NCBI GenBank assembly: GCA_015711825.1
Contig: JACVJD010000003.1
Coordinates: 1 to 59,596 of the forward strand
DNA: 59,596 nt
Direction: 5' to 3'
From: Candidatus Solincola daggyaiensis
GTDB lineage: Bacteria; Actinomycetota; Geothermincolia; Geothermincolales; RBG-13-55-18
Shown: positions 3,642-32,270 of the stretch, in pieces
How positions within the stretch are numbered: position 1 is the stretch's first letter
Layout: every line of letters starts with the position of its first letter
Made by a program: the position numbers and the translations under genes
Notes under the pieces: generated by a model
The model's input: the letters and a program-made list of their open reading frames with translations, nothing else
Databases searched by the model: none
Told to the model about the DNA's origin: nothing

Positions 3642-3700
3642 TGGGGTCAGGTCTTGCTTTGTGCGTATCTGAGACGAGCTGTCGTTAATAAAAGCGCTGG

Positions 3701-5011: not shown

Positions 5012-5016
5012 CGGCG

Positions 5017-6204: not shown

Positions 6205-6216
6205 AAAGGAGGGCCC

Positions 6217-7467: not shown

Positions 7468-8145
7468 CTAGTTGATAATCTCGAAGAGCTCCATAGGCCC
7501 CTTCTTGAAGGCGATGACCTCGCATCCCTCTTGACCGGGTGCTTCATCGCCCCATTGGAACCATCCCGGCCGACCGTGCCGCGCGAACAATTCCAGGTAG
7601 GGGCCGGGGCTGCAACGCTCGATTATATCGTAGAGCTCGTCCGGTTTTCTGGAGTGCTCGCGCTTCCTGCTGCGAATGATATTGACCTGGGTTCTTCCCG
7701 GCTTCGCGGTTCTCAGATTGCCCCGCACGCCGAAAAGCACCAGCTCCGTGACGTTGCGGAAATAAAATCCCACGCCACGACCGTCCGGGCCGCCATCTTT
7801 TCGGATCTTGTACCATACCAGGTTGGTCTTGTAATTGAACCCCCAGCTCTTCATGACCTCAAGTCCCTCGAGTATCAGGGCGTTCGGAACCCAGAGGTAG
7901 AGATGGCTCTGGGGCGCCGAGATCCGGGAAACCGGCAGCTCCGCTATCTCCTTCAGGGACATGGTCACGTATCTCTTCAATCTCTTGTGCTCCGGCGCCA
8001 TCTTTCCGGTTCTGTTCATGAACTGCCACGGCGGATCGGCAAGGATGGTGCCGAATCTTCCCGTCCCCAGCTCAAGCAGGTCGCTTGCGGTGTTTCTTGC
8101 GGCGCTTCCAGCGGATTTACCGATTTCCCATTCCTCAATCCTCAA
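7468..8145 (-). CDS. MT-A70-family (MunI-like) DNA N6-adenine methyltransferase of a type II R-M pair
   Basis: Catalytic ILADPPWQF motif followed by conserved WVWPNALI-like LYLWVPNALILEG. The best start is TTG at 8145, 7 nt after AGGAGG and overlapping the endonuclease stop. The maximal ORF extends to GTG at 8199. Confidence 0.8.
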   Translation of the reverse strand: MRIEEWEIGKSAGSAARNTASDLLELGTGRFGTILADPPWQFMNRTGKMAPEHKRLKRYVTMSLKEIAELPVSRISAPQSHLYLWVPNALILEGLEVMKSWGFNYKTNLVWYKIRKDGGPDGRGVGFYFRNVTELVLFGVRGNLRTAKPGRTQVNIIRSRKREHSRKPDELYDIIERCSPGPYLELFARHGRPGWFQWGDEAPGQEGCEVIAFKKGPMELFEIIN

Positions 8146-8722
8146 CGTACAACCTCCTGGAGATGCCGAATACCAGCACCGGGCGCCCTCCTCCTCCACC
8201 GCCTTCGATACGCGGCAGCAGTTTGCTCATGTGCGTCGTCGATGCTCCGTACGAGGCTCCTTTTCCCAATTCTTCGAAGACCTCCTGCAATTCATCGCAT
8301 CTGGTTATTATTATACCGACGCTGATGACACGCAGCTCGAACAGGAGGCGGAAGTTGTTCAAATCCCGGTCATAGAACGGATCCTTGTTGTTCCACTCGA
8401 TCTCTATAGCCACCCTGTTCTTATAGCAATCCACCTTGTGAGTCGGCGACTTTATCTCGTCCTCGTCGACAACCATCTTGGTGTCGAAACCCCTCTCGAC
8501 CCAGCCTCTCGCCGCGAACATGGAGTTGAACTTCTCCGATATAGGGGAGAGTCGCCCTCCTGGCTTTGTAATGTCGCTGCGCAGGAGGCGAAACCTGGTG
8601 AGGACATCCGCGATCTCTTCCCATTCGTCTGGGAAATCCTGACTCAGGATGGCACATGCGTGCTTCCACTCATGTATCTCGTAATGTGAGCGGATGAATT
8701 CGGGGATACGGCCTATGGCCAT
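8135..8722 (-). CDS. Type II restriction endonuclease, BglII/BstYI-like PD-(D/E)XK fold
   Basis: 195 aa from ATG 8722 (SD GAGGGAGAGGG). Candidate catalytic D-X8-E-X-E (VDCYKNRVAIEIEWNNKD) has the same spacing as the BglII D-X8-E-X-Q motif. It overlaps the methyltransferase start. Confidence 0.55.
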   Translation of the reverse strand: MAIGRIPEFIRSHYEIHEWKHACAILSQDFPDEWEEIADVLTRFRLLRSDITKPGGRLSPISEKFNSMFAARGWVERGFDTKMVVDEDEIKSPTHKVDCYKNRVAIEIEWNNKDPFYDRDLNNFRLLFELRVISVGIIITRCDELQEVFEELGKGASYGASTTHMSKLLPRIEGGGGGGRPVLVFGISRRLYVED

Positions 8723-8832
8723 CGTTTCCCTCTCCCTCAATCCCCCGCTGATCGGCAGCTTTTCTTACCAATTACTCCCTACATATATTTGGCCGTTCCA
8801 TCCCCGTTTCCTTGTTTTGTTAGAGATTCATA

Positions 8833-10008
8833 TCAGCAGATCCTGGGGAAGTGCTCGCCGGAGGGCATGCGCAGCAGGCGGTTAGAGCCCAGGGGGGTGA
8901 GGAGGCTTACCTCTCCGGCGCGTCCCTCGAGCACCCTGCCGATGACGGCGGCGTTTTTTCCGAGAGGATGGGCGCGCATGGCCGCCAGCACCACCGGCGC
9001 CGCTTCTTCCGCCACCGCAGCCAGGAGCTTGCCCTCGTTGGCCAGGAGCAGGGGGTCGAGACCCAGCACCTCGCAGAAGGCCCGTACCTCCTCCCTCACC
9101 GGGACATCCGCCTCGACGACCTCGAAGACCACTCCCGAGGCGGTCGCCATCTCCTTAAGCGAAGCCGCCAAGCCCCCGCGGGTGGGGTCACGAAGCGCGT
9201 GTACCGCGCACGCCCCATCATGGCTTGGCTCGGCAGGCGGTTCCGTCTTGTTCGAGGAGCGGCCATTTTCACGACGGCCGCTTCGTAATCCCGCCGCTTC
9301 GCCGTCCCGCGAGTAGGCCCTGCCGCCCGGAGTTTCTCTCCCGGTATCCGCGCCCTTCCCCCCGGCCGCTTCCAGCATGGCTTCCACCAAGCCGTTGAGG
9401 GGAGCACAGTCGGATTCCACCTCCACGCGGAAGTCGAAGGCCTCCCTGCGGCTGAGCACGGCCGCCTCGTGGTCGCCCACGCAGCCGCTCACAATCAGCA
9501 CGTCTCCGGGGCGGGCGCCCCGGATGGAAACATGGCGTCCGGGGGGGATCACGCCGATGCCGGAGGTGTTCATATACATGCCGTCTGCTGCGCCTTTCTC
9601 GACTACCTTGGTATCCCCGGCAACGACCGATACTACCGCCTCGCCCGCCCAGCGGCGCACCGATACCAGCGCCTTCTCCAGCGTCTTGAAGGCGAGCCCT
9701 TCCTCGAGGATCAGTCCCAAGGTCAGGAACAGGGGGCGGGCGCCACGCATGGAGAGGTCGTTTACCGTGCCGCACACCGCCAGCTTGCCTATGTCTCCTC
9801 CGGGGAAGAAGAGGGGTCTGACCACGAAGGAATCGGTGGTGTACGCGATCCTTCCTCCGGCTTCCAGTCCGGGCAGGGAAAGAGCGGCGGCATCCTCGGC
9901 ATCGAGCAGCGTTCCCCCTCCCAGGGCTGGGAAGACCACCTCTTCCAGCAGCTCCAGCATGCGGGAGCCCCCCCCGCCGTGGGCCATGGTTATTACCTTC
10001 TCAGGCAA
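8833..10008 (-). CDS. hypE: Hydrogenase maturation protein HypE (carbamoyl dehydratase) with an insertion of about 51 aa
   Basis: PurM-like MAHGGGGSRM N-terminus, RDPTRGG motif, C-terminal PRIC. At 391 aa it is about 50 aa longer than usual, owing to a Gly/Arg/Ser-rich insert at roughly 9208-9360. Confidence 0.9.
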   Translation of the reverse strand: MPEKVITMAHGGGGSRMLELLEEVVFPALGGGTLLDAEDAAALSLPGLEAGGRIAYTTDSFVVRPLFFPGGDIGKLAVCGTVNDLSMRGARPLFLTLGLILEEGLAFKTLEKALVSVRRWAGEAVVSVVAGDTKVVEKGAADGMYMNTSGIGVIPPGRHVSIRGARPGDVLIVSGCVGDHEAAVLSRREAFDFRVEVESDCAPLNGLVEAMLEAAGGKGADTGRETPGGRAYSRDGEAAGLRSGRRENGRSSNKTEPPAEPSHDGACAVHALRDPTRGGLAASLKEMATASGVVFEVVEADVPVREEVRAFCEVLGLDPLLLANEGKLLAAVAEEAAPVVLAAMRAHPLGKNAAVIGRVLEGRAGEVSLLTPLGSNRLLRMPSGEHFPRIC

Positions 10009-10108
10009 AGCCTCCTCCGTTCACCGTCCCGGTATCTCCTCCCCGAGCGGGGAAACATGCGGGAGCCTCCCCCACCATGGGCCATGGTAATGACCTTATC
10101 GGGCAAAG
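9958..10108. repeat. Imperfect 53-bp direct repeat duplicating the hypE start region (copies 9958-10010 and 10056-10108)
   Basis: Both copies encode (M/L)P(E/D)KVITMAHGGGGSRM on the minus strand. The upstream copy overlaps the hypD stop (TTGCCCGATAA) and runs into a stop after 37 codons. Confidence 0.85.
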
Positions 10109-11196
10109 AGCTCACCTTCCCGGAAGTCGTAGAGGTAGTAAGAGGCGCAGGTGCCCTCGGTGGAGACCATGCAGGGCCCCACCGGGCTCTCCGGGGTGCA
10201 GGCGCGGGCGAAGAGAGGGCAGTCCATGGGCTTGATCCTGCCGCACAGCACGTCCCCGCAGCGACATCCCTTGTCCCCTGCCGCCTCCGGCGCCTCCACC
10301 CCCCAGGACCCGGCGTCGTGGGAGCGGTATTCTTCCCGCAGAGCCAAGCCGCTCGCGGGGATGACGCCCAGTCCCCTCCACTCCGCATCCGCGGGCTCGA
10401 AGACTTCCTCCATGATCTCCCGCGCCTTCGGGTTGCCGTCCTCCCGTACCGCCCGCGCGTACTCGTTGGCGATGGCGGGCTCTCCCCTCTCCCTCATCTC
10501 CAGAAGCAGACACACCGCGCGGAGGATGTCCGCGGCCTCGAAGCCCGCTACCACGCCGGGCAGGCCATACTCGTCGGCCAGGAAGGAGTAGGCCCGCGCG
10601 CCGAGAACGGCGCTCACGTGCCCCGGGAGGAGAAAGCCGTCTATGGCAAAGTCTTCCATATTGAGCAGGGCGCGCAGGGCCGGCGGCACCAGTTTATGCA
10701 GGCTGAGGACGAAGTAGTTGTAGACGCCGTCCCTCTTGGCGCGCATGAGGGAGGCGGCCACCGCGGGCGCGGTGGTTTCGAAACCCACCCCCAGGAAGAC
10801 CACCTTGCGGTCGGTCTCCTCGCTCGCCATCCGTAGTGCCTCCAGGGGGGAGTAGACCACTTTCACCGCGGCCCCCCGCGAGGACGCCTCGGAGAGGGTC
10901 CCTTGCGGTCCAGGCACGCGCATCATGTCCCCGAAGGTGGCCAGGGTGACGTCCTCCAGACCCGCGAGGGCGACGGCCCGGCCTATGTCCGCCTCCGAAG
11001 TGACGCATACCGGGCAACCCGGGCCGGAAACCAGCTCCACGCTGCCGGACAGCAGCGGTCGCAGTCCCGCGCGGGAGATGGCCATGGTATGGGTCCCGCA
11101 CACCTCCATGAAGGATGCACGCGACCCGAAGGCGCGTATCTTCTCCAGCTGTCCGCGCAACAGCTCCGGGGCGCGGTACTCGTCGATAAACCTCAT
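10096..11196 (-). CDS. hypD: Hydrogenase maturation protein HypD
   Basis: 366 aa. GPGCPVCV and C-terminal Fe-S Cys motifs. Sits in hypC-hypD-hypE order. Confidence 0.92.
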   Translation of the reverse strand: MRFIDEYRAPELLRGQLEKIRAFGSRASFMEVCGTHTMAISRAGLRPLLSGSVELVSGPGCPVCVTSEADIGRAVALAGLEDVTLATFGDMMRVPGPQGTLSEASSRGAAVKVVYSPLEALRMASEETDRKVVFLGVGFETTAPAVAASLMRAKRDGVYNYFVLSLHKLVPPALRALLNMEDFAIDGFLLPGHVSAVLGARAYSFLADEYGLPGVVAGFEAADILRAVCLLLEMRERGEPAIANEYARAVREDGNPKAREIMEEVFEPADAEWRGLGVIPASGLALREEYRSHDAGSWGVEAPEAAGDKGCRCGDVLCGRIKPMDCPLFARACTPESPVGPCMVSTEGTCASYYLYDFREGELFAR

Positions 11197-11217: not shown

Positions 11218-11445
11218 TCACGCCTCGTCCAGGCGCGCGTACTCCTCGAGTATCTCCAGGGTCTTTCGCGCCTCCTCGGGATCAACCTTCTCGATGGCGA
11301 AACCGGCATGCACGAGGACGAAATCGCCCGCCTCCACTCCGTCCACCAGCATGAGGCTGACCTCTTTGCGCACCCCCCCTATCTCGATGAGCGCGAGGCC
11401 GTCCTCCAACAGCTCGACGACCTCGGCGGGAACCGCCAGGCACAT
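11218..11445 (-). CDS. hypC: Hydrogenase maturation chaperone HypC
   Basis: 75 aa, starting MCLAVPAEV with the essential N-terminal Cys. Confidence 0.9.
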   Translation of the reverse strand: MCLAVPAEVVELLEDGLALIEIGGVRKEVSLMLVDGVEAGDFVLVHAGFAIEKVDPEEARKTLEILEEYARLDEA

Positions 11446-11473: not shown

Positions 11474-14230
11474 TTATCCGCGACGGCACGCCGCCACCAC
11501 CGCCTGCCCTAGGGATATCCCCCCGTCGTTACATGGTACCCTGCGGTGCAGGTGACACGCCATGCCCTCCGCCTCCAGACCCCTCGTCACCGCCGCTGTG
11601 AGCAGGGCGTTCTGGAAGACCCCGCCGCTGAGGACCACGCGGCCGACCCCGGTCTCCCGGCCCAGCCTCATGCATACCGCGACCAACGCTTCCGCGAGTG
11701 CGGCATGGAAACGTCCCGCGATCTCTCCAATCCCAACCCCCCTCGCGACGTCCTCCAGCAGCGCCGAGAACAACGGCCTCGTGTCTATCTTCCAGGGAAA
11801 GGAAACGGCGTCCAGCTCCCAGCGATAGGGTCGGGCCTCCGCCGCGGCCGCAGCCTCCAGCTCGCACGCGGCCTGGCCCTCGTAGAAGGCCTCGTCCCGC
11901 AGGCCCGCCAGCGCCGCCGCCGCGTCGAACATCCTCCCCGCGCTGGAGGTCATCGGGGCGTTGAAGCCGCTCTCCGCCTGCGCCGCCAGCGCCCCCGCCA
12001 GGCCCGCTCGCGCGGGAAAAATCCTGGCATATAATTCCATGGCTTCCTTCTCATCCCCGCAGACGCCCCATAACACCCCGAAGGCCATGCGGAAGATGTC
12101 CTTCACGCAGACGTCCCCCCCCGGCATAGGATAAGCCTGTAGATGGGCCACGCGCTCGTATCCCTCCTCGTCACATACCAGGAATTCTCCTCCCCACACC
12201 GTGCCGTCGGGGCCGTAGCCGGTGCCGTCCCAGGAGACGCCGATGACCTTTCCCTCCAGCCCGTTGTCGGCCATGCAGCTCACCACGTGGGCGTGGTGGT
12301 GCTGCACCCCCTCCAGGGATAGGCCGAACTCCCCCGCGAGCTGGGTAGTGATGTAGTCGGGATGGAGGTCGTGGGCGACCACCTCGGGCCGCAGAGAAAA
12401 AAGGCGGCGTACCGCCTCCATGGCCTCCTGGTAGTGTCGCAGCGTCTCGCGGTCGTCCAGGTCCCCGATATGCTGGCCCACGAAAGCGTGCCTTCCCCGC
12501 AAGAAGCAGAAGGTGTTTTTCAGCTCGGCGCCCAGCGCCAGCACCTCCGTTCGCGACTCCCGCGCCAGCGTCACCGGGTAGGGAGCGTAACCGCGCGCCC
12601 TGCGGACAGGGTATTCCCGCCCTTTCAGCACCATGCTCACGGAGTCGTCGTATCTCACCAGGATATCGCGGTCGTGGAGGAGGAAGTAGTCGGCGATGCC
12701 CGCCAACCTCTCCCTGGCCTCCTCGTTGCCCTTGGCTATGGGCTCCTCGCTTAAGTTTCCGCTGGTCATGACCAGGGGGATGCCCGCCTCACGCAGCAGC
12801 AGGTGGTGCAGGGGAGTGTAGGGGAGGTAGACCCCCAGGCGCCGCAGGCCCCTGTTCACCTCGCGGGATATGGGCGAGCCCTCTCTCCCCTCCAGGAGGA
12901 CGATGGGGCTCCGCGGGGACGAGAGCAGCTCCGCCTCCTCCTCGCTCACCAGGCAGTGCCGCTGGGCCTCCTCCAGATCCTTAACCATCACCGCCAGGGG
13001 CTTGGCGTAGCGGCGCTTGCGCCCCCTCAACCTGGACACCGCCTCGTCGGAGGTGGCGTCGCAGGCGAGCTGGAATCCGCCCAGCCCCTTCACCGCCACG
13101 ATCATGCCCTCGCGCAGCAGCCTCGCCGCCTCGCATACCGGGTCCCCGTCAACGGCGGCACCCGTCGCGTCCTCCAGCCACAGGCGCGGGCCGCAGTCGG
13201 GACAGGCGTTGGGCTGGGCGTGGAAACGGCGGTCCGAGGGATTGCGGTATTCCCGCTCGCAATCCGCGCACATCCTGAACGGAGCCATGGTCGTGAACGG
13301 TCGGTCGTAAGGGATGTCGGCGATGATGGTGAAGCGGGGTCCGCAATTGGTGCAGTTGATGAAGGGATAGCGGTAGCGGCGGTCCGAGGGATCGAAGAGC
13401 TCGCGCAGACAGTCTGCGCAGGTGGCGAGGTCGGGGGAGACCAGGGTCACCTTCTCTCCCTCGCCGCTGCTTTCCATTATCTGGAATGATACTGCCTGGA
13501 AGGGTGGCACCTCCTCGATTCCGACCTCCTCGATCAGCGCCGCCGGCGGCGCCTCTTCCCGCAAGGCGCTCAGGAAGGAGTCGAGGGCCTCCTTTCCACC
13601 CGCTACCCTGATGCGCGCCCCCTCCGGGGTATTGACCACCCACCCGGCCAACCCGCGCTCGCGCGCGATGCGATAGACGAAGGGGCGGAAACCCACGCCC
13701 TGGACGATACCCCGGAGGTTTATCTCCATGAAGGCCTCGCCGCCGCCCGCCTTCTCGACTTCCTCCAGGACCAGACGCCGCACGTGGGGCAGGGCTTTCT
13801 CTACCTCCGGAGACAGCTCCGTTCCTGCCTCCAGGCTTTTGACCTGCACCGCGATAACCGTTATCTCCTCCGGGCACTGCTCCAGCAGCTCCGCGGAGGC
13901 GATGAGCTCGTAGAGGCCGAAATCGTGCAGGGAGAGCGACGGCGATCCCCGCTCCTGCCTCACCTCCCGCGGCGAGAAGCGGAACACCGCCCCCGGCTCC
14001 TCCCCCGCGTCGATGGCGTCGATAAACACGGCCTTTTCGCGCCCCTCGAGATAGGGCAGGAGATCGGGGCTGTAGATCATCCCTTCCACCAGATCCACCC
14101 CATCCGGCAGACAGCCGCGCAGGGATTCCACCGCTCGCACTCCCACCCCGTCGTCGCCGCGCAGGGGATTGCCGATGCCGATCACCACGCAAGCGGCCCC
14201 GGGCTTGTTCTCCTCTCCATCACTATCCAT
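11474..14230 (-). CDS. hypF: Fusion ORF: hydrogenase maturation endopeptidase domain (HyaD/HybD/HycI family, about 167 aa) joined in frame to full-length carbamoyltransferase HypF (751 aa)
   Basis: N-terminus has IGIGNPLRGDDGVGV...DAIDAG...SLHDFG (protease). From the internal ATG at 13729 there is an acylphosphatase domain (GIVQGVGFRPFVYRIA), two CxxC zinc-finger pairs, then YrdC-like and Kae1-like domains. No stop codon separates the two parts. Confidence 0.85.
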   Translation of the reverse strand: MDSDGEENKPGAACVVIGIGNPLRGDDGVGVRAVESLRGCLPDGVDLVEGMIYSPDLLPYLEGREKAVFIDAIDAGEEPGAVFRFSPREVRQERGSPSLSLHDFGLYELIASAELLEQCPEEITVIAVQVKSLEAGTELSPEVEKALPHVRRLVLEEVEKAGGGEAFMEINLRGIVQGVGFRPFVYRIARERGLAGWVVNTPEGARIRVAGGKEALDSFLSALREEAPPAALIEEVGIEEVPPFQAVSFQIMESSGEGEKVTLVSPDLATCADCLRELFDPSDRRYRYPFINCTNCGPRFTIIADIPYDRPFTTMAPFRMCADCEREYRNPSDRRFHAQPNACPDCGPRLWLEDATGAAVDGDPVCEAARLLREGMIVAVKGLGGFQLACDATSDEAVSRLRGRKRRYAKPLAVMVKDLEEAQRHCLVSEEEAELLSSPRSPIVLLEGREGSPISREVNRGLRRLGVYLPYTPLHHLLLREAGIPLVMTSGNLSEEPIAKGNEEARERLAGIADYFLLHDRDILVRYDDSVSMVLKGREYPVRRARGYAPYPVTLARESRTEVLALGAELKNTFCFLRGRHAFVGQHIGDLDDRETLRHYQEAMEAVRRLFSLRPEVVAHDLHPDYITTQLAGEFGLSLEGVQHHHAHVVSCMADNGLEGKVIGVSWDGTGYGPDGTVWGGEFLVCDEEGYERVAHLQAYPMPGGDVCVKDIFRMAFGVLWGVCGDEKEAMELYARIFPARAGLAGALAAQAESGFNAPMTSSAGRMFDAAAALAGLRDEAFYEGQAACELEAAAAAEARPYRWELDAVSFPWKIDTRPLFSALLEDVARGVGIGEIAGRFHAALAEALVAVCMRLGRETGVGRVVLSGGVFQNALLTAAVTRGLEAEGMACHLHRRVPCNDGGISLGQAVVAACRRG

Positions 14231-14314: not shown

Positions 14315-15451
14315 TCACGCCTCCTTTTTCGCGGGCGCCGGCACCGGCTCCGGCAGGATCGGGAGCTTGTTGAGCACCCCCACCCCGACCTCGCCGAACT
14401 TGGGCTGCGCGACGTAGCGGTCGATGAGTAGGGTCCCGATGTTCCACATGAAGATGGCGATGGCCACTCCCTCGGGCCGGTAGTGGAGCATCCTTATAAG
14501 GAACACCGTTACCCCGATGCCCACCGCGTAGATCCATTTGCCCCTCCTGGTCACCGGGCTGGTCACCCAGTCGGTGGCCATGAAGAAGGCTCCGAGGAAA
14601 AGCCCGCCCGTGAAGAGGTTGTAAAGGGGCTGGTTCCAGAATACCAGGTTGAGCAGCAGGAAACTGCCGATGATCCCCGTGGGTATGCGCCAGTCGATGG
14701 TGCCGCGCCATATCAGATAAAGGCCTCCCAGCAGAAGGAGCAGCACCGACACCTCGCCTATGCAACCGCTCTTAAGCCCCAGGAACAACGACCCTAGGGT
14801 GGGCCTCCCGGCGCTGTTGGTCCAGGTGGCGCCGATGGGCGTAGGCCCCGTGAGCACGTCCACCCCCCAGCGCCCCGACTTGAGCAAGGACAAGGGGGTT
14901 GCCGCCACCGCCAGGTCCGTCTGGTTGCCCGCCAGGGTCTGGAAGGAAGTGACCCCTTTGCTGAAACTGGTGGCGATGGGGGTGAAGAACCCGGTGGTTT
15001 TCCAGTAGAAGGGCCGTACGAACCTGGTGGTGTACACCGCCATGGGGGTGATCCACAGCAGCAGTCTGGCGGTGACGGCCGGGTTGAGCACGTTCTTGCC
15101 CAGGCCCCCGAAGAGCTCTTTGAACACCGCTATGGCTATGAAGGAGCCTATGGCCACTACCCAGAGCGGCGTGGTGGGCGGGAGCAGGAAGGCGAAGAGC
15201 ACCGCCGTGACCATGGCGCTGTAGTCCTTGAGGGTGATCTTGCGGCGGCGCAGCTTGCGCATGACCACCTCGGCCAGAGCGGCGGCGGCGCAGCTCACGG
15301 CGAGGACGAGCACCACGTTGAACCCGAAGACCACCATCGCCCATATCGCGGCCGGAGCGAGCGCGATGAGCACGTCCCGCATGGCGCGCGAGATGGTCTC
15401 GTCCTTCTTATGCAGGTGAGGAGAGACGTTCGTCAACAGGTTTCCAGCCAT
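14315..15451 (-). CDS. RnfD/NqrB-family integral membrane protein
   Basis: 379 aa from ATG 15451; the longer ORF-track start overlaps the rnfC-like gene. Polytopic, with the family-typical FFMATDWVTSP segment. Confidence 0.8.
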   Translation of the reverse strand: MAGNLLTNVSPHLHKKDETISRAMRDVLIALAPAAIWAMVVFGFNVVLVLAVSCAAAALAEVVMRKLRRRKITLKDYSAMVTAVLFAFLLPPTTPLWVVAIGSFIAIAVFKELFGGLGKNVLNPAVTARLLLWITPMAVYTTRFVRPFYWKTTGFFTPIATSFSKGVTSFQTLAGNQTDLAVAATPLSLLKSGRWGVDVLTGPTPIGATWTNSAGRPTLGSLFLGLKSGCIGEVSVLLLLLGGLYLIWRGTIDWRIPTGIIGSFLLLNLVFWNQPLYNLFTGGLFLGAFFMATDWVTSPVTRRGKWIYAVGIGVTVFLIRMLHYRPEGVAIAIFMWNIGTLLIDRYVAQPKFGEVGVGVLNKLPILPEPVPAPAKKEA

Positions 15452-15465
15452 TCGCGTCACCTCCC

Positions 15466-16794
15466 CTATCTTTTCTTCAGGGCCGCTATGTCGGCCTTGG
15501 CCTTGCGGACGTAGGTAACGTGCGGGATGTAGGCGGGACAGGTGAAGGAACAGCATCCGCACTCGAAGCAGTCGAGCGCGCCCCACATCTCCGCCTTGTC
15601 CCACTCCCCTCTCTTCACCGCCTGCACGATGAAGTTGGGCTGCAGGAACATGGGGCAGACATCCACGCACTTGCCGCAGCGCACGCACTCATGCTCCTCG
15701 GCCACGTCCACCATGTCCGCGGTCAACGCGAGCACGCCCGAGGTCCCCTTGACCACCGGTGCCGCGGCGTCTGGTTGAGCCCATCCGGTCATGGGCCCGC
15801 CCATGACGACCTTGGCGAGGCTGCCCTTCGTCCCTCCGCAGGCGTCGAGGAGATCCTGGATGGGGGTTCCTATCCTCACCAGGAGGTTGTCCGGCTGCGC
15901 GATCCCGTCCCCACTCACCGTTACCACTCGCTCGTAGAGGGGCTTGCCCCAGGCTGCCGCCTCGTAGAGGGCGATGGCGGTGCCCACGTTCTGCACCAGG
16001 CATCCCACCTCGGACGGCAGCTTTCCGGGGGGGACCTTCCTGCCCGTGAGAGCGAATATGAGCATCTTCTCCGCCCCCTCGGGGTACTTGACGTCCAGCA
16101 CCTCGACCTTGACGGCTTCCACGCCGCCGGCCGCCTCGCGCATCACCTCCACCGCGTCCATCTTGTTGGCCTCGATGCCGATGATGCCGTCCCTGGCGCC
16201 CACGGCCTTCATGAGCAGTTTGAGGCCAGCCACCAGGTCTGCGGGCCGCTCCAGCATGAGGCGGTGGTCGCAGGTCAGGAAGGGCTCGCATTCGCAGGCG
16301 TTGATGATCACCGTGTCCACGGGCTTGTCCGCGGGAGGGGTGAGCTTTACGTGGGTGGGGAAGGCGGCTCCCCCCATTCCCACCAACCCCGCTTCCCGGG
16401 CTATGGCTCGGATCTCCTCGTCGCTGTAGGCGTCGAGATCCTTGCCCGGCTGCTTGGCGAACTGGGGCTGTTCGGCGTCGGGCGTGATGACCACGCACTT
16501 CACCTTGGCCCCGGTGAAGCCGGTAACCTCGGCGATCTCCTTCACCGTGCCCGCCACCGAGGAGTGCACGGGGGCGGAGACGAAGGCCTCGGAGGCTCCG
16601 ATGCGCTGGCCCAGCTCCACATGGTCTCCCGCCGCAACCAGGGACTCGTTGGGCGCCCCGATATGCTGCGAGAGGGGAATGTACACCTTGGCCGGCACGG
16701 GGCATTCGCGTATGGCCTTGTCCTTGGCGAGCTCCTTGTTGTAGGGCGGATGAATGCCGCCGGCGAAGGTCTTGAAAACGGCCTTTCCGGACAT
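15466..16794 (-). CDS. RnfC-like NADH-binding Fe-S flavoprotein subunit
   Basis: 442 aa from ATG 16794. GMGGAAFPTHVK, ECEPFLTCDHRLM and two 4Fe-4S ferredoxin motifs (CVRCGKCVDVCP, CFECGCCSFTCP). Confidence 0.85.
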   Translation of the reverse strand: MSGKAVFKTFAGGIHPPYNKELAKDKAIRECPVPAKVYIPLSQHIGAPNESLVAAGDHVELGQRIGASEAFVSAPVHSSVAGTVKEIAEVTGFTGAKVKCVVITPDAEQPQFAKQPGKDLDAYSDEEIRAIAREAGLVGMGGAAFPTHVKLTPPADKPVDTVIINACECEPFLTCDHRLMLERPADLVAGLKLLMKAVGARDGIIGIEANKMDAVEVMREAAGGVEAVKVEVLDVKYPEGAEKMLIFALTGRKVPPGKLPSEVGCLVQNVGTAIALYEAAAWGKPLYERVVTVSGDGIAQPDNLLVRIGTPIQDLLDACGGTKGSLAKVVMGGPMTGWAQPDAAAPVVKGTSGVLALTADMVDVAEEHECVRCGKCVDVCPMFLQPNFIVQAVKRGEWDKAEMWGALDCFECGCCSFTCPAYIPHVTYVRKAKADIAALKKR

Positions 16795-16796
16795 CT

Positions 16797-17300
16797 TCAC
16801 ACCCCCTCTTCCCCGCTCCTGGCCCCGAGGCGGGGGAACCTTTCCGACCTGGTCCAGCGGGCGTAGATGTAGATGACGTTGGCCAGCAGAACTACCCATA
16901 GGAAGACGTCGTATGCCTTCCAGGTGTTGGCGATCCCACCGAAGGCGTCGTTAAGCCACTTCATCCAGCTGTTTGGGAGGTAGAAAGCGTAAGAGAGCAG
17001 GAAGTACCATATCGCCAGCAGGGCGAGGACTATCCTGTACCACCCCATGGGCTCGTTCCACCCCTTGGGCTTGCCCAGGGTGGCGTAGTAGATGTACACT
17101 CCCGCAGTCAGGGCCATTGTCCAGATGGAGAACAGGCCCAGGGTCTGAGCGATGCCCATCTGCCAGGGGTACCTCCACCCCTCCAGGAAGGGGTGGAGAT
17201 TATTGAAGCCCAGGTAGATGGAGACCGCCAGGGCGCTCAGGTAGATCGCGTACATCGCCTTCGCCGCACCCGGGATGCGTATTTTTTCCTTCATCCGCAT
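16797..17300 (-). CDS. Small Trp/Tyr-rich integral membrane protein (4-5 predicted helices), hydrogenase-operon associated, no recognised family
   Basis: 167 aa with SD GGAGGTGGG. It lies 9 nt after the large-subunit stop and abuts the rnfC-like start. It has a single His, so it is not a dihaem cytochrome b. Confidence 0.6.
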   Translation of the reverse strand: MRMKEKIRIPGAAKAMYAIYLSALAVSIYLGFNNLHPFLEGWRYPWQMGIAQTLGLFSIWTMALTAGVYIYYATLGKPKGWNEPMGWYRIVLALLAIWYFLLSYAFYLPNSWMKWLNDAFGGIANTWKAYDVFLWVVLLANVIYIYARWTRSERFPRLGARSGEEGV

Positions 17301-17309
17301 CCCACCTCC

Positions 17310-18911
17310 TTAAAAGACGCGGAATTCTTTCACGCCGTTGTGCTCGGGGTGGATGACATGGATGGCGCATGCCAGGCAGGGGTCGAAAGACCGCACGCAG
17401 CGCACCACGTTGATGGGGTTCTCCGCGTCGGGCACCGGGAGTCCGAGCAGCGCGGTCTCGATGGGCCCGCGGTTGCCTTCCTTGTCGCGGGGCGCGGCGT
17501 TCCAGGTGGTTGGCACGATCGCCTGGTAGTTCTCGATCTTCTTGCCCTTGATGTGGATCCAGTGCCCCAGGGAGCCGCGGGGGCCCTCCACCAGGCCACG
17601 CCCGTAGGACTCGCCTGGGATATCCTTCTTGTCCCAGATGGGCTCGCCCGGCTTGAGCTCGTCCAGCCACACCTCCATCTGGTCCGCCAGGAGCTTGCAC
17701 TCCAGGGCGCGCATAGCGTGACGCGGCAGGATGCCGAACTTGCCGGCGGTGGCCAGTTCCATGACCTTGGCGTCCAGCCCCAGGGACTTTATGAGCGGCA
17801 TGAGCTTCTGCTTTTCGCCCGCGATCTTTCCCGAGAGCTCCAGGCCCGCCAGCACCAGCATGCGGGCCATGGGACCCACCTCCATGGGCTTGCCGTCGTA
17901 GCGCGGCGCCTTGAGGAAGGAGTACGCGCCGTCCTTGCCCACCTCGGGCTCGGTCTTGCCCTCCTTGGGGTGCAGGCCCTCGCACTCGTCCTTGTACCAG
18001 GAGTGCTTCACCGACTCGGTGACCTTTTCCTCTTCGAACTCCTTCACCGCAGTCACCTCGTTGCCGATGATGCAGCCGCGCGGCAGGAACTTCACCGTGC
18101 CCTTGGAATCCTCGTCGAAGCCTCCGTAGGCGAGGTAATTGCCTCCGGAGTCGCCCGCGGTGAAGAAGATCTCGTAGGCTGGAACGCCGGCCACGGTGAG
18201 GATGTCCTGCACATAGACGTTGTCGATCCAGAAGCGCAGCTCCGCCAGGCGGGCGCGGAAAGCGGCGATGTTGGAGATGGTCGGCTGCACGGTAACCCCG
18301 CCGGGAACGGTCCCCACGAAGCTCGGCATGCGGCCGTAGAAAATGGATAGCATCTCCTGCGCCTTCTTGCGCATCTCCAGTGCCTCCACGTAGTGGCCGA
18401 CGAGAACGGTGGCGATCTCGGGATCGCTCACGTAATCGTCCGTCTTATAGCGCGGGAGGAAGGGATATACGTCGTTCGCCTTCACCAGCCCTGCCACCTT
18501 GCCTTTTATGGCTTTCAGCGCCGGGTTGTTTCCCGAGTAGTCGACCACCGCCGCCACGTCCACGTAGTCCAGGGCGGCCAAGTGGTAGAAGTGAAGGATG
18601 TGGGACTGGATGAAGTTCGCGCCCAGGCAGAGGTTGCGGATGATCCGTGCGTTGTCCGGCAGCTCCACCCCCAGCGCGTCGTCCAGGTTGTAGGAAGCGG
18701 CGGTGCCGTGCACCAGGGGGCACACCCCGCAGATGCGTTCCGTCACCTGCTGGGCATCGAAGGGGTGTTTGCCCTTAAGCAGCATCTCGATACCCCGGAA
18801 CATGGTGCCCGATGACCAGGCGTCCTTGACCTTCCCGTCCTCGATCTCCACGTCGATGCGGAGGTGTCCCTCGATGCGCGTCACCGGGTCTATGCTTACG
18901 AGCTGCGCCAT
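17310..18911 (-). CDS. [NiFe]-hydrogenase large subunit
   Basis: 533 aa. RIEGH, N-terminal RICGVCP and C-terminal DPCLACAIH Ni-Fe ligands, followed by a 15-aa cleavable extension. Confidence 0.93.
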   Translation of the reverse strand: MAQLVSIDPVTRIEGHLRIDVEIEDGKVKDAWSSGTMFRGIEMLLKGKHPFDAQQVTERICGVCPLVHGTAASYNLDDALGVELPDNARIIRNLCLGANFIQSHILHFYHLAALDYVDVAAVVDYSGNNPALKAIKGKVAGLVKANDVYPFLPRYKTDDYVSDPEIATVLVGHYVEALEMRKKAQEMLSIFYGRMPSFVGTVPGGVTVQPTISNIAAFRARLAELRFWIDNVYVQDILTVAGVPAYEIFFTAGDSGGNYLAYGGFDEDSKGTVKFLPRGCIIGNEVTAVKEFEEEKVTESVKHSWYKDECEGLHPKEGKTEPEVGKDGAYSFLKAPRYDGKPMEVGPMARMLVLAGLELSGKIAGEKQKLMPLIKSLGLDAKVMELATAGKFGILPRHAMRALECKLLADQMEVWLDELKPGEPIWDKKDIPGESYGRGLVEGPRGSLGHWIHIKGKKIENYQAIVPTTWNAAPRDKEGNRGPIETALLGLPVPDAENPINVVRCVRSFDPCLACAIHVIHPEHNGVKEFRVF

Positions 18912-20024
18912 CTATCCCTCACCTCCCTCGGGGACCTTCTTACCAAGTTGCTTGTAGAGGTAGTGTGCTCCGATGCCGACCGCCGTAGCGCCCGCTGCCA
19001 CCCAGCCCAATGTCTCCGCCGTGGTATTTATACCCAGGAAATTGACATTGGGCAGGGGTTCGTAGAGCGGTGAGAGATCCTTGTAGAAGGTGGGCTCGGC
19101 GCAACCGTGGCAGGGAGCGTTGGCGCCCACGCACCAGTTGACCCCGGAGTTCCAGCGCCGGGTGGGACAGTCGGCGTAGGTCACCGGGCCCTTGCAGCCC
19201 ATCTTGAAGAGGCAGAGCTTGAAGTCCGGGTTGTTGTCGTTCCAGTCCTCCAAGAACAGCCCGGCGTCGAAGGAGGCCCTCCTCTCGCAGTTCTCGTGAA
19301 TCAGCTTGCCGAAGAAAGCCGTGGGGCGACCGTGCTTGTCCAGCTCGGGTACCCTTTTGTTGACGAGGTAGTCGAGGACGGTGCCGATAAACCAGTCCGG
19401 GTGGGATGGGCACCCCCCGATGTTGATAACCGGCTTGTCCCTGCTTATGCCCTTCACGATCTCCTGTACCGGTTTGGTTCCGGTCACCGAGGCGTTGGCG
19501 GCGGGGATGCCGCCGAAGGAGGCACAGTTGCCCAAGGCTATAACCGCCGCCGCGCCGGGAACCAGCTCTTCCATCCAGGCCTCGATGGGCTTGTCCTTGC
19601 GACGCTGGTAACCGTTGAACGGCGCCGTTTCCTTTTCCAGGCCGAAGGTGCAGTACTCGCCGCCCTCGGCGGTGGGGATCGGCCCCTCCACCACCAGCAC
19701 GTACTTGCCGGCGAGCTCCTTGGCCGTCTCCTCCAGCACCCCGAAGGCCAGGTCGCCGGCGGCGGCCATGACGTTGGGGTGGTAACGCACGGAGAGCTTG
19801 TCCAGCACCAGCTCCGCCACGTTGGGGAAGTTGGTGTTGAGGAACGAGATGGAGCAGCCCGTGCAGTTCTGCCCCTGGATCCACAGCACCGGCGGCTTGC
19901 CCGAGGCCAGCTCCTCGAGAGCGCGGGCGATCTCCGGCACCAGGGCTTCGCTCAAGCCCAGCAAGGCCGCAGTGGCGCCCGCGTACTTGATGAATTGCCG
20001 CCGTGTCACTCCCTTCTTCTCCAC
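18912..20024 (-). CDS. [NiFe]-hydrogenase small subunit, Tat-exported, with C-terminal membrane anchor
   Basis: 370 aa. Twin-arginine signal TRRQFIKYAGATAALLGLSEA, Fe-S Cys ligands, C-terminal helix LGWVAAGATAVGIGAHYLY. GTG start sits 7 nt after AGGAGGTGA. Confidence 0.92.
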   Translation of the reverse strand: MEKKGVTRRQFIKYAGATAALLGLSEALVPEIARALEELASGKPPVLWIQGQNCTGCSISFLNTNFPNVAELVLDKLSVRYHPNVMAAAGDLAFGVLEETAKELAGKYVLVVEGPIPTAEGGEYCTFGLEKETAPFNGYQRRKDKPIEAWMEELVPGAAAVIALGNCASFGGIPAANASVTGTKPVQEIVKGISRDKPVINIGGCPSHPDWFIGTVLDYLVNKRVPELDKHGRPTAFFGKLIHENCERRASFDAGLFLEDWNDNNPDFKLCLFKMGCKGPVTYADCPTRRWNSGVNWCVGANAPCHGCAEPTFYKDLSPLYEPLPNVNFLGINTTAETLGWVAAGATAVGIGAHYLYKQLGKKVPEGGEG

Positions 20025-20645
20025 CGATCGCTCACCTCCTGACTGCTTGATCCTCCAACGCGAAGGGGATATGTTTGGTATGCGCCCGGAGGCGGTGAAA
20101 CGACCTAGGAAAGTGGGAGGTTTCGAGATCGTACGGTTCGAAAACCGCCCTCCACCGGTCTCCGGGCGACTTATCTTTCAACTCCACCGATGAAGCGCTT
20201 CGTTTTACAGCCGACGATGCCGCATCACTCACGCGATACTGCCTCCAGTGCTCCGTGCTCCCGGCCTTACCCGGGCAGCTATTGCTCCATGGAAATTCTC
20301 TTAGGCCGCCGCTTGGCCGAAAATCGGCTAGACTCCGAACGAATCGCGCCATGCCGGCCTTGAATCAACAGGATATTTTCCATTTTTTACCATCTATTAT
20401 TGCAACCTTCTTCCCCGCCAGGATTACGATTTTCCCGCGCCCGTCTTGTGCGTTAATTCTTCGGACCTTAGGCGCTCTAAACAACAGTCCGACAATTACC
20501 CCGAAGTAACGGGGCAATGTGCCGTTTGAGTGTAGGGAAAGCCATACAATCCTCTCGCTTTCCCTTTTTCTATCAGTATGTTTTCCTAGGTCACATCCAG
20601 TCAACACGAAAAGCGGGTCTTTTGTCAAGGCTTTGTCCTGGTTCA

Positions 20646-20935
20646 CTACATCGTGAACAGTAGCTCCCTATGCTTGCCCTCCTCCATCCATTGCGCCAGG
20701 AACTCCATGGGGGTGAGATAACCCAGGCCCTGATGGGGCCTCACGTGATTGTATACGAAATTCCACTCGTCGAGGATGCGGTTGAGCTCCTCCACCGTAT
20801 ATCCCTCCCGGAAGGCCCAGAGCTCGTACTTGTCGGACCGACCTCCCTCTCCATGAATGCGTTATCCTTGGGTAATTGGGGACGGCTGGAGTTATCGGCG
20901 ATCAACTATACCTTGACGGCATGCTCGAAGTGCGG
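20646..20935 (-). pseudogene. Truncated, frameshifted remnant of an rve-integrase-type (IS3/IS481-like) transposase
   Basis: The minus-strand frame 20861-20646 reads ...DKYELWAFREGYTVEELNRILDEWNFVYNHVRPHQGLGYLTPMEFLAQWMEEGKHRELLFTM*. This is the classic YNxxRPHxxLGYxTP C-terminus. Upstream, PKDNAFMER is in another frame, and there is no start or N-terminal domain. Confidence 0.7.
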
Positions 20936-20960
20936 GAGAGACACCAAGCCTTTGTCGGTC

Positions 20961-24800: not shown

Positions 24801-25514
24801 CTATTTGCGGAAGGCGGTGAGGATGCGGTAGCCGAACTCGGCGGGCTCAACGGGAATGACCTCGAATCCCCGGAAGCCGGCCGCCTCCAGGTGCTCTTTC
24901 CACACCGCATCGGTGGTGAAGTACTCGCCCTCCCCCTTTATCACCGCGGGAATATCCTGGATGTGCAGGAGCATGGTCTCGAAGGCGCCGTGCTCCAGGT
25001 CGTAGAGGGACTTTCCCACCATTTTGAGGATGATATCCCGGGCACGCGCCGGATCGTCCACGGGCCCATCGACGTCGCAGAACATGTCGGCGTAGATGAG
25101 CCTGCCGCCGGCCCTCATCACGCGGGCCAGCTCGGCGGCGCATCCCATCCTGTCCTCCGGGGGCACGTGGTGAAGGGCGAGGTTGGATACCGCGTAGTGC
25201 ACGTAATCGGTGGGCAACGGAACCCTGAGGGCGGAGCCGATGGCGATGTGCACGTTGGGATATTCCCGGAAGCGGTTGACGCATCCCTGCACCATGCGCT
25301 CCGAGGGGTCCACGCCGTATATCTCGGCGTCGGGGTTCTCCTCCGCGAGGAGGGCGAGCAGGGTGCCGGAGCCGCATCCCAGGTCGAGGACGCGCTTGCG
25401 ATTGGCATCCCCCACCAACTCCATTATGATCCGCAGGGCGTCGGCGTACATGGGGTCGCGGTCGAAGAGGCTCTCGTATTCACCGCTGAAATCGTCCCAG
25501 AATCCCATGGCCAC
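24801..25514 (-). CDS. Class I SAM-dependent methyltransferase
   Basis: 237 aa. Motif I VLDLGCGSGTL and post-I/II segments. Start is GTG 25514 or ATG 25508. Confidence 0.85.
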   Translation of the reverse strand: MAMGFWDDFSGEYESLFDRDPMYADALRIIMELVGDANRKRVLDLGCGSGTLLALLAEENPDAEIYGVDPSERMVQGCVNRFREYPNVHIAIGSALRVPLPTDYVHYAVSNLALHHVPPEDRMGCAAELARVMRAGGRLIYADMFCDVDGPVDDPARARDIILKMVGKSLYDLEHGAFETMLLHIQDIPAVIKGEGEYFTTDAVWKEHLEAAGFRGFEVIPVEPAEFGYRILTAFRK

Positions 25515-25719
25515 ACCTCACCTACTCCTCGCCGAGGCTTTCCGCTATAACCTTTACCTTTTCCTTCATCCCCAAAAGTCAGATCCACCAGGACTGGTCA
25601 CGCCGGACCCCCCTTATCCGCTCCATGATCCGCAGGGCGTCGGCGTACATGGGGTCGCGGTCGAAGAGGCTCTCGTATTCACCGCTGAAATCGTCCCAGA
25701 ATCCCATGGCCACACCTCA
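25428..25719. repeat. Exact 93-bp direct repeat (25428-25520 and 25627-25719) duplicating the SD, start codon and first ~29 codons of the methyltransferase gene
   Basis: The two copies are identical when read base by base, offset 199 bp. The upstream copy opens a 44-codon ORF, MAMGFWDDFSGEYESLFDRDPMYADALRIMERIRGVRRDQSWWI*. Confidence 0.9.
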
Positions 25720-26058
25720 ATTCCTTATCGGCAAAGCCCGCCGCGACGGCTCTTCCCTGTATTCATCACTACAGATCGTCAGCCCCGCCGCCCGGCGCGC
25801 CGTCGTATCGCCGACATCGAAGGGAGATGAATAACTGCAGAAAGGCTTCCATTTTTTTCTATATATCTCTCGCCAAGGTAACCGGCCAGCCTGCCGCCGC
25901 TGTGCCGCTCGGCGGAATCGCGTGACCTCCATCTCCTCACCATCTTGCAGCCTTGAGTTTTGCGGATTGTCCGAGGCCCATGAACAGGGACTCGACCGGC
26001 CTCAAGGTCTTCGCGCCCCGCATAGGGGGTATGTTTCCCTTTCAAGGCGGCAAGTCTT

Positions 26059-32265: not shown

Positions 32266-32270
32266 CGGGA

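Follow-up and report, generated by a model that had tools for sequence, protein, structure and literature searches.

The contig JACVJD010000003.1 of Candidatus (Ca.) Solincola daggyaiensis (assembly GCA_015711825.1) carries an operon in which the two subunits of an exported [NiFe]-hydrogenase are followed by a small membrane protein and by homologs of only two Rnf subunits, RnfC and RnfD. The whole contig was analyzed (59,596 bp, called the window below). The five core genes encode the hydrogenase small subunit (SSU), the large subunit (LSU), a 167-amino-acid membrane protein that we term TM167, RnfC, and RnfD. From the data presented here we infer that their products form one membrane complex, a reversible electrogenic H2:NAD+ oxidoreductase in which the flavins of RnfD would act as a transmembrane wire. 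We assign this interpretation a probability of about 0.55. The idea of such a wire was put forward in a sequence-only reading of the locus, and the present analysis follows up on that proposal.

The genes lie on the minus strand in the order SSU-LSU-TM167-RnfC-RnfD, with the hydrogenase maturation genes behind them (Table 1), as the sequence-only reading had it; all but TM167 were identified by Pfam and NCBIfam matches. The tight junctions that it described measure 0, 9, 2, and 14 nt among the five core genes, and a further 84 nt separate RnfD from hycI-hypF. A GGAGG-type ribosome-binding site precedes each of the five core genes, and no terminator-like sites were found inside their junctions. 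The hyp genes expected after the core are found downstream as HycI-HypF, HypC, HypD, and HypE. The protease and HypF form one open reading frame (ORF) in the window and are separate adjacent genes in the other loci in which they were mapped or called. The single ORF is either a true gene fusion or the product of a stop codon lost in assembly.

Table 1. Coordinates of the hydrogenase-RnfCD operon, its sequence features, and the RnfCD pairs of locus L041 (AF2, AlphaFold2; TM, transmembrane; positions refer to the window except in the last row, which uses the coordinates of L041)
Feature	Position	Strand	Details
[NiFe]-hydrogenase SSU	18912-20024	-	370 aa; PF01058, PF14720, TIGR01409
SSU C-terminal TM anchor LGWVAAGATAVGIGAHYLY	18954-19010	-	residues 339-357; near-invariant
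[NiFe]-hydrogenase LSU	17310-18911	-	533 aa; PF00374 478 bits
TM167, 167-aa four-helix membrane protein	16797-17300	-	AF2 model; homology to HyaC-type cytochrome b
RnfC	15466-16794	-	442 aa from MSGKAVFK; TIGR01945 539 bits (cut-off 246)
RnfC [4Fe-4S] motifs CxxCxxCxxxCP	15652-15687 and 15535-15570	-	motif
RnfD, membrane subunit	14315-15451	-	378 aa; TIGR01946 268 bits (cut-off 207); PF03116 sole Pfam domain
RnfD extracellular five-helix linker	14753-15085	-	residues 123-233; holds the insert
RnfD Thr185 codon, predicted covalent FMN site (AAT185PLSLLK)	14897-14899	-	aligns with C. tetanomorphum Thr153
RnfD clade-specific 24-residue insert RWGVDVLTGPTPIGATWTNSAGRP	14801-14872	-	residues 194-217, just after the FMN site
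HycI-HypF fusion ORF	11474-14230	-	918 aa; HycI/HyaD-type protease (residues ~15-162) plus carbamoyltransferase HypF
HypC	11218-11445	-	PF01455
HypD	10096-11196	-	PF01924
HypE, final gene of the conserved block	8833-10008	-	AIRS and AIRS_C domains; position kept in related loci
Sigma-70-like promoter match TTGACT-18-CATACT	20575-20604	-	sole match upstream of the operon; weak evidence
L041 RnfCD pairs	1-1458 and 8610-11143		

The gene order is shared far beyond chance. A scan for TM167 in one genome per GTDB species found the protein in 29 species. The carriers are uncultured Actinomycetota of hot springs and the subsurface, and those with names fall within Ca. Geothermincolia, a class represented here by Ca. 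Solincola, Geothermincolales, and Anoxymicrobiaceae. In every locus from these species and from further contigs of metagenome-assembled genomes (MAGs), the order SSU-LSU-TM167-RnfC-RnfD-HycI-HypF-HypC-HypD-HypE is intact up to the contig limits. Metagenomes, which were queried with an alignment of RnfD, yielded 41 more loci with an RnfD of the hydrogenase-linked type. SSU, LSU, TM167, and RnfC are present in every one of the 19 that have 5.2 kb or more of upstream sequence, and HycI in 29 of the 32 that have downstream sequence. The synteny is therefore not peculiar to the source genome; the sequence-only reading had named such uniqueness as grounds against its proposal, and this check does not refute it.

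The homologs of TM167 form 42 clusters at 50-85% identity. Those that come with a source name carry hypothetical or generic unrelated labels, and the organism-labeled ones derive from Actinomycetota MAGs. A full-text literature search found no published description of a hydrogenase-RnfCD unit, which agrees with the sequence-only reading, whose author knew of no such described complex. Group 1 hydrogenases and Rnf both appear among the features that Merino et al. give for these clades and are not connected there (PMC7325909), and a 2025 review of Rnf and NQR is silent on hydrogenase-linked RnfCD (PMC12174285).

Judged by its motifs, the hydrogenase is a C-terminally anchored group 1 enzyme, provisionally termed 1a-like, that would be exported by the twin-arginine translocation (Tat) pathway. 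The group 1 [NiFe] traits present are a twin-arginine SSU, the CxxC motifs and tail of the LSU, and a HycI/HyaD-type endopeptidase in the operon. Both the Tat signal and the C-terminal anchor proposed earlier for the SSU were found: the motif RRQFIKY lies in a signal formed by residues 1-37 (19914-20024; PF10518/TIGR01409), and a transmembrane (TM) helix spans residues 339-357. The protein passes TIGR00391 (317 bits, cut-off 179.5), and its C-terminal domain contains seven Cys and one His, as in the type with three [4Fe-4S] clusters. Its nearest solved chain is the small subunit of a [NiFeSe] enzyme (2wpn_A, 259 bits). The LSU has the motifs RICGVCPLVH (L1) and DPCLACAIH (L2) and a 15-residue C-terminal maturation peptide, and passes NCBIfam NF033181 with 714 bits against a cut-off of 600. 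Here, too, the nearest solved structure is [NiFeSe] Hys (5jsu_B, 425 bits), by a small margin over group 1b, represented by the standard periplasmic [NiFe] enzyme 1frf_L (402 bits).

The anchor helix of the SSU, LGWVAAGATAVGIGAHYLYKQLG, is near-invariant in an alignment of 29 sequences (the window and 28 orthologs). This conservation suggests that the helix makes a specific helix-helix contact or has a specific partner in the membrane. Pfam scans of the contig ORFs found none of the other acceptors sought, namely cytochrome c3, HybA/HybB, and Isp.

SelA, SelB, and SelD adjoin the operon in three related loci (L002, L040, and L041; L numbers denote loci throughout), and this prompted a check for selenocysteine in the LSUs. 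It was rejected: all 29 LSUs read DPC(L/I)AC, with Cys. The sel genes are found there even though the hydrogenase uses Cys, and they more likely serve selenocysteine-containing formate dehydrogenases.

TM167, to judge from profile and structure comparisons, is a heme-less descendant of the HyaC-type hydrogenase cytochrome b. The protein contains 11 Trp, 14 Tyr, and 1 His. It has no match in Pfam or NCBIfam and falls below the threshold of PF01292. An AF2 model, with a mean confidence score (pLDDT) of 81.6, is a bundle of four long helices. The best PDB matches of this model in Foldseek are the cytochrome b of E. coli Hyd-1 (4gd3_A and 6g94_B; probability 1.0, TM-score ~0.6), and further matches include FdnI (1kqf_C) and NarI. 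When a TM167 profile was compared with 1.84 billion representatives, it recovered only ~5 family members and a single weaker match from outside the family, P0170 (E 5e-5), a genuine PF01292 (Ni_hydr_CYTB) protein. Alignment of the two with hhalign covers all four helices (94.3% probability, E 9.7e-8). The P0170 gene lies 10 nt after an LSU gene whose product is 42% identical to the LSU of the window (locus L038), and thus holds the same operon position as TM167.

The heme His residues of P0170 align to Y17, G55, Y130, and Y144 of TM167, such that none of the four ligands is kept. Because these His residues are absent, TM167 cannot be filed as a cytochrome b, and the sequence-only reading was right to describe a Trp-rich protein with one His that is no dihaem cytochrome. 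Its description of a "novel" membrane protein in place of a cytochrome b holds only in part: the heme ligands are gone, but the protein is homologous to the HyaC-type cytochrome b by both Foldseek and hhalign. Heme binding by the sole His (His36), perhaps together with a His of the SSU anchor, was considered and rejected. His36 is N or S in two homologs, and the positive-inside rule puts the two residues on opposite faces of the membrane. Since TM167 appears to be a heme-less descendant of a HyaC-type subunit, a role as scaffold is more likely than one as electron carrier.

RnfC contains an RnfC_N barrel, an NADH/flavin mononucleotide (FMN) module with the sequences GMGGAAFP and ECEP, an SLBB domain, and two [4Fe-4S] motifs. 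All 24 sequences aligned (the window and 23 orthologs) retain the four motifs, and so the NADH/FMN site and paired clusters read from the letters were found again. The PDB matches of RnfD are RnfD chains (7zc6_D, 9eri_D, and 8ahx_D). Its AF2 core is confident, and Foldseek again ranks RnfD chains first (TM-score 0.84-0.87). The hydrogenase-linked RnfD proteins form a clade of their own, with at least 117 clusters at identities of at least 55% and a sharp drop to 44-45% for canonical RnfD. The nearest outgroup RnfD, P0161, sits in a standard rnfCDGEAB operon.

In C. tetanomorphum Rnf, RnfD carries covalent FMN on Thr153 in the outer leaflet (PMC9588780). The corresponding residue of the window is Thr185, and Ala184-Thr185 is invariant in 22 aligned clade sequences (the window and 21 orthologs). 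Asn123, Glu233, and Asp294 are also invariant and match C. tetanomorphum residues with a proposed place in the riboflavin/Na+ site; the Asn90 of that species is Leu in the window RnfD. The flavinylation motif of ApbE, Dxx(s/t)gA(T/S), agrees with the window sequence DLAVAAT at D, A, and T. Across the clade the consensus reads (T/S)xAT, and position -6 varies. In a related genome, apbE is drawn beside rnf (figure legend, PMC7325909). A second flavinylation site, DVLTGPT, was suggested by a phmmer pairwise alignment and was rejected. The multiple alignment puts the canonical Thr at AAT185PL, and TGPT belongs to the insert specific to the clade.

The distances reported for Rnf are <5 A from FMN-G to FMN-D, 7.7 A from FMN-D to riboflavin, and 11.7 A from riboflavin to the RnfC cluster (PMC9588780). 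By these values, RnfC and RnfD alone would therefore span the membrane. A five-helix linker overlies FMN-RnfD and is the place where RnfG docks in Rnf (PMC9588780). This linker measures 110-114 residues in the hydrogenase-linked clade, compared with 61 in C. tetanomorphum and 93-94 in A. vinelandii and in the nearest canonical RnfD (L037). It holds an insert whose motif, TG(P/A)TPVGATW, is conserved in the clade; the insert is missing in the same three reference proteins. On the alignment evidence, the RnfG-docking surface of the hydrogenase-linked RnfD is remodeled.

The other Rnf subunits are not encoded at the locus. Pfam scans of all other ORFs of the contig detected no RnfA/E, RnfG, or RnfB (PF02508, PF04205, and PF04060), and likewise no PF00175 or PF04205 domain is present in the locus. 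When RnfG/E/A/B of a canonical operon were used as tblastn queries, neither the window nor any of 36 related loci, taken with up to 10 kb of flanking sequence, gave a match. The absence of rnfGEAB claimed in the sequence-only reading thus extends to the entire 59.6-kb contig. That reading had named rnfGEAB just past a further contig join as grounds against its proposal; the window is one whole contig, in which no joins or N runs were found. Relatives of the canonical RnfG of L037 come from Omnitrophota, Planctomycetota, and others, with no named Actinomycetota among the matches to this one RnfG query.

RnfD proteins of the hydrogenase-linked clade also occur in other surroundings. In L041 (GCA_020723485.1), a clade-type RnfC-RnfD pair lies between sel genes and Peptidase_S15, and the usual hydrogenase and hyp genes are missing there. 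A second pair of canonical type (RnfD of 319 aa) lies 8.5 kb away with no G/E/A/B downstream. L043 (9315-11137; GCA_040757835.1) has a clade-type RnfD without RnfC or hydrogenase. The preceding gene encodes a 228-residue membrane protein with TM helices at both ends, a Pro/Thr-rich outer stretch, and the ApbE-like sequences DAVTSATP and DVTTAASP; from these motifs, it may be a flavinylated mini-partner of RnfD. SCP2 and thiolase genes follow RnfD in L043, and SCP2 is found in L080 as well. In L102 (5712-8999), a true PF01292 cytochrome b of 249 residues is encoded directly upstream of an RnfC-RnfD-only pair, which is followed by a histidine kinase gene. This cytochrome was considered as an ancestor of TM167 and rejected, as the two share no similarity (hhalign probability 0.25%).

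RnfC-RnfD pairs that stand alone are not confined to this clade. Among the metagenome loci with canonical-type RnfD, rnfG/E/A/B are missing in 11 of the 26 that have at least 1.5 kb downstream. Several of these RnfD proteins form a second clade, whose members are 54-66% identical to each other and ~39% identical to the window RnfD. It accompanies a Tat-exported formate dehydrogenase in L088, L094, L096, L098, L101, L103 (7965-12822), L106, L109, and L118. The genes are arranged as FdnG-FdnH-RnfC-RnfD or RnfC-RnfD-FdnG-FdnH, and L118 additionally carries FdhE. FdnG has a Tat signal and an in-frame TGA for selenocysteine in the hallmark sequence HCARL-U-HSSTV, and FdnH is a four-cluster protein with a C-terminal TM helix. 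In L113 (5823-11911) and L122 (731-8960), RnfCD of the second clade lies beside a Tat [NiFe] hydrogenase and a Tat HybA-like Fer4_11 iron-sulfur subunit. The SSU and LSU of these two loci are 41-47% identical to those of the window. No cytochrome b, NrfD-type subunit, or rnfGEAB is present in the second-clade units.

By gene content, then, the pairing of a hydrogenase with RnfCD exists outside Geothermincolia with a different adaptor, and two unrelated RnfCD lineages are each attached to predicted outward-facing, low-potential dehydrogenases, so that the design recurs. The formate units suggest formate:NAD+ complexes of the same design. The potentials of H2 (-414 mV) and formate (~-430 mV) both fit NAD+ at -320 mV. 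Of the comparative evidence, this recurrence speaks most strongly for the wire proposed in the sequence-only reading. That proposal gains as well from the retention of Thr185 and of the RnfC motifs; its use of the small membrane protein as a carrier is less likely, given that TM167 lacks the heme ligands.

If the five proteins do form one complex, then H2 would be cleaved on the external side of the membrane. Electrons would pass through the three [4Fe-4S] clusters of the SSU to FMN on Thr185 of RnfD, a site that is fed by RnfG in normal Rnf. They would continue to the riboflavin in RnfD, the two RnfC clusters, the RnfC FMN, and NAD+, following the known Rnf route. TM167 would carry no electrons; it would hold the old cytochrome-b seat below the hydrogenase and tie the SSU anchor helix to RnfD. 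Because electrons would move inward and protons would appear outside and be consumed inside, the reaction would separate charge, and H2 uptake would build a membrane potential. Conversely, NADH-dependent H2 evolution would be driven when the membrane potential is high and H2 is low. Rnf, too, can run in either direction (PMC9588780, PMC12174285). We lean toward H2 uptake that supplies NADH to Wood-Ljungdahl metabolism, and the direction is the least secure step of this scheme. A quinone-reducing cytochrome b would be of little use to such organisms, since two Rifle MAGs with the operon (L004 and L005) are reported without Nuo and NarGH (PMC7325909).

Several observations weigh against this reading. 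The transfer of electrons from H2 to NAD+ has a delta E0' of only ~94 mV (-414 versus -320 mV), or ~-18 kJ/mol, whereas the inward transfer of two electrons against a potential of 150 mV requires ~29 kJ/mol. The complex would therefore operate near equilibrium, and uptake with full charge separation would need high H2 or a low membrane potential. Residues 144-211 of RnfD, in the linker and insert, are modeled at pLDDT <50. The Asp at position -6 of the ApbE motif is replaced in many RnfD orthologs, and Pfam scans of the ORFs in the 59.6-kb window found no ApbE to flavinylate Thr185. Clade-type RnfD also occurs without hydrogenase (L041, L043, and L080), and L068 and L075 have an additional clade-type RnfCD pair directly upstream of the SSU. 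For Ca. Solincola uaceae, rnfABCDEG genes have been reported (PMC12917137), and the two Rifle MAGs are reported to have "the Rnf complex" (PMC7325909). Given these published annotations, rnfA/B/E/G probably exist elsewhere in these genomes, and their products may join a larger assembly.

The alternative that fares best keeps the complex and reverses it. A membrane-potential-driven NADH:H+ oxidoreductase would dispose of fermentative NADH as H2 on the outside, which is the kind of reverse electron transport that syntrophs need. From the established potentials, this direction would be favored thermodynamically at environmental H2 and a normal membrane potential. The [NiFeSe] type of the nearest solved relatives points the same way, the periplasmic formate dehydrogenase sister design suits syntrophic formate/H2 production, and [FeFe] hydrogenases are missing in most genomes of these clades (PMC7325909). 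However, the organisms have the Wood-Ljungdahl pathway and inhabit H2-rich springs and the subsurface (PMC7325909, PMC12917137). Tat-exported group 1 enzymes are typically uptake hydrogenases, and nothing in the sequence fixes the catalytic bias. On balance we regard operation mainly in this direction as somewhat unlikely.

The reports of further rnf genes are the basis for a second alternative, in which RnfCD of the operon joins RnfA/B/E/G encoded elsewhere to form a hydrogenase-Rnf supercomplex. The hydrogenase would dock at the outer flavin node, and H2 would be linked to NAD(H) and ferredoxin with ion pumping. Besides these reports, such a role is consistent with the retention by RnfD of the residues proposed for the Na+/riboflavin site. 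The distribution of genes points away from it: rnfG/E/A/B are not within 10 kb in 36 loci, and the parallel four-gene FdnGH-RnfCD units also lack them. The hydrogenase-linked RnfD proteins are set apart from canonical RnfD as a clade and have a remodeled linker where RnfG would dock. The second, canonical-type pair in at least one related genome (L041) gives the operon pair the look of a paralog. A supercomplex thus seems improbable to us, and the self-contained five-protein complex remains the preferred explanation.

The occurrence of the same RnfD clade without hydrogenase in L041, and in L043 with the small DAVTSATP-type protein, raises another explanation, namely that the genes are co-expressed without a shared complex. 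RnfCD would then serve some other outward flavoprotein or redox partner, as might be expected from the diversity of flavinylated outward electron-transfer systems (PMC8238504), and the hydrogenase would use a soluble or unknown acceptor. Such an arrangement does not fit well with a five-gene order that is invariant across a class, with junctions of 0-14 nt, nor with the high conservation of both the SSU anchor helix and TM167. No cytochrome c3, HybA/HybB, or Isp is encoded to take the electrons. We consider separate functions very improbable.

Least probable of all is a quinone route, in which TM167 retains a cofactor or quinone site through which the hydrogenase reduces menaquinone and RnfCD is an NqrA/B-like NADH:quinone module sharing that site: TM167 does derive from a quinone-reducing cytochrome b, RnfC and RnfD are homologous to the NqrA and NqrB that form the quinone site of NQR (PMC9588780), and L102 places a true cytochrome b next to an RnfCD-only pair, but TM167 lacks all four heme ligands and an invariant His36, RnfC has the full NADH/FMN/iron-sulfur set unlike the cofactor-less NqrA, the cytochrome of L102 is unrelated to TM167, and the two Rifle genomes are reported to lack Nuo and NarGH (PMC7325909).

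The preferred five-protein complex can be compared with several known systems. Like Rnf of C. tetanomorphum (7ZC6), A. woodii (9ERI), and A. vinelandii (8AHX), the operon encodes the cofactor sites of RnfC and RnfD and would thus have the inward leg from outer FMN through riboflavin and RnfC to NAD+ that forms the second half of the Rnf path. It encodes only two of the six Rnf subunits, however, and lacks the RnfB ferredoxin module, the RnfA/E iron center, and the RnfG shuttle. The outer donor would be the hydrogenase, the membrane would be crossed once rather than twice, and the RnfD linker is longer and carries the insert. With E. coli Hyd-1 (HyaABC, 4GD3), the operon shares the Tat SSU anchor, the LSU maturation peptide, and a third gene homologous in sequence, fold, and position; it differs in that its cytochrome-b homolog lacks all four heme His residues and that RnfC and RnfD come after it. 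The group 1a Hys [NiFeSe] enzyme (2WPN/5JSU) appears alike in its iron-sulfur ligand pattern and gives the best similarity by a small margin, but the operon enzyme has Cys in place of selenocysteine and no cytochrome c3.

Two-subunit NQR/RNF-like systems, which are common in Actinobacteria (Meheust et al. 2021, PMC8238504; Huang et al. 2024, bioRxiv 10.1101/2024.03.13.584918), embody the same concept of an RnfD/NqrB-type one-way wire, in their case from cytosolic NAD(P)H to the outer face. In those systems an RnfD-like domain is fused to PF00175, the partner is an RnfG-like flavoprotein, and the flavinylation Thr of RnfD is lost. In the operon, RnfC is the NAD module, the Thr is kept, no RnfG-like protein is encoded, and the partner is a hydrogenase. 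Hydrogenases are mentioned in neither of the two reports. Timmers et al. note a syntroph whose partial Rnf comprises C, D, and two G.

Group 3d Hox/SH enzymes carry out the same proposed net chemistry (H2 + NAD+ -> NADH + H+) with iron-sulfur clusters and FMN, but they are cytoplasmic rather than Tat-exported, are uncoupled from the membrane potential, and use a NuoE/F-type diaphorase instead of RnfCD. In FdnGHI, a Tat-exported low-potential dehydrogenase sends electrons inward in an electrogenic reaction, and the FdnG(Sec)-FdnH-RnfC-RnfD units are its direct analog. FdnGHI contains a dihaem cytochrome b and has menaquinone as its acceptor, whereas the second-clade units have RnfCD instead of FdnI and would pass the electrons to NAD+. 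To our knowledge, Rnf subunits have not been described as the redox partner of any group 1 hydrogenase, nor a hydrogenase as the electron donor of any Rnf-type module. The parts of this system are all known, but their combination is not; it is well conserved and has a plausible mechanism.

If the proposed complex exists, then it would couple H2 to NAD(H) across the membrane with no need for quinones, cytochromes, or electron bifurcation. This would bear on reducing power and energy conservation in Wood-Ljungdahl organisms that lack bifurcating hydrogenases and on how syntrophs drive the uphill conversion of NADH to H2 or formate. It would also offer a natural minimal system that isolates the RnfD-RnfC leg, which could be useful for locating ion translocation in Rnf and NQR. 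A broader hypothesis, which we hold only tentatively, is that the RnfC-RnfD half-complex is a general membrane module, one that stands in for cytochrome b or for NrfD-type subunits beneath low-potential dehydrogenases exported by Tat. These would be the [NiFe] hydrogenase in Geothermincolia and, in other lineages, the selenocysteine formate dehydrogenase or a hydrogenase with a HybA-like subunit. The resulting flavin-wired H2:NAD+ and formate:NAD+ oxidoreductases, coupled to the membrane potential, would form a new class of energy-converting enzymes. Acetogens would then gain a quinone- and cytochrome-free coupling site, and syntrophs a direct export of NADH electrons as H2 or formate. TM167 would be a clear case of a redox subunit retained as a scaffold. 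Annotations count these rnfC and rnfD genes toward "an Rnf complex," and metabolic reconstructions of these Actinomycetota may consequently be wrong.

Upstream of the operon, the promoter scan gave 1 match compared with 1.9 in shuffled sequences. The ~0.9 kb before the SSU (20025-20960) contains no convincing ORF and no Rfam match to a riboswitch or other RNA element. The matching space in L006 and L007 is occupied by Se_S_carrier, TusA, and Sulf_transp genes.

Other features of the contig lie apart from the operon. Between HypE and a glyoxalase gene, positions 7468-8740 (minus strand) encode an MT-A70 methyltransferase and a BglII-type restriction endonuclease. This segment is probably a recently acquired restriction-modification island, because the third-position GC of its genes is 0.69-0.73, compared with 0.8-0.9 in their neighbors, and because it has no counterpart in related loci. 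A 120-nt direct repeat (25426-25545 and 25625-25744; 91% identity, 199 nt apart) copies the 5' end of an S-adenosylmethionine-dependent methyltransferase gene (24801-25514, minus strand) into its upstream region. The segment 39676-46463 (minus strand) encodes a 395-residue protein without a Pfam match, two Amphi-Trp domain proteins, a CofD-like protein, a RimK-like ATP-grasp protein, and a PhoU-APH fusion. At 31543-33524 (plus strand), a gene for a corrinoid (B12-binding) protein adjoins one for a URO-D/MtaA-like methyltransferase. Finally, positions 2124-6990 (plus strand) encode an AMP-forming ligase, two 2-hydroxyacyl-CoA dehydratase D-component (HGD-D) proteins, and an enoyl-CoA hydratase, which looks like a radical dehydratase pathway for the fermentation of hydroxy acids or aromatic acids.

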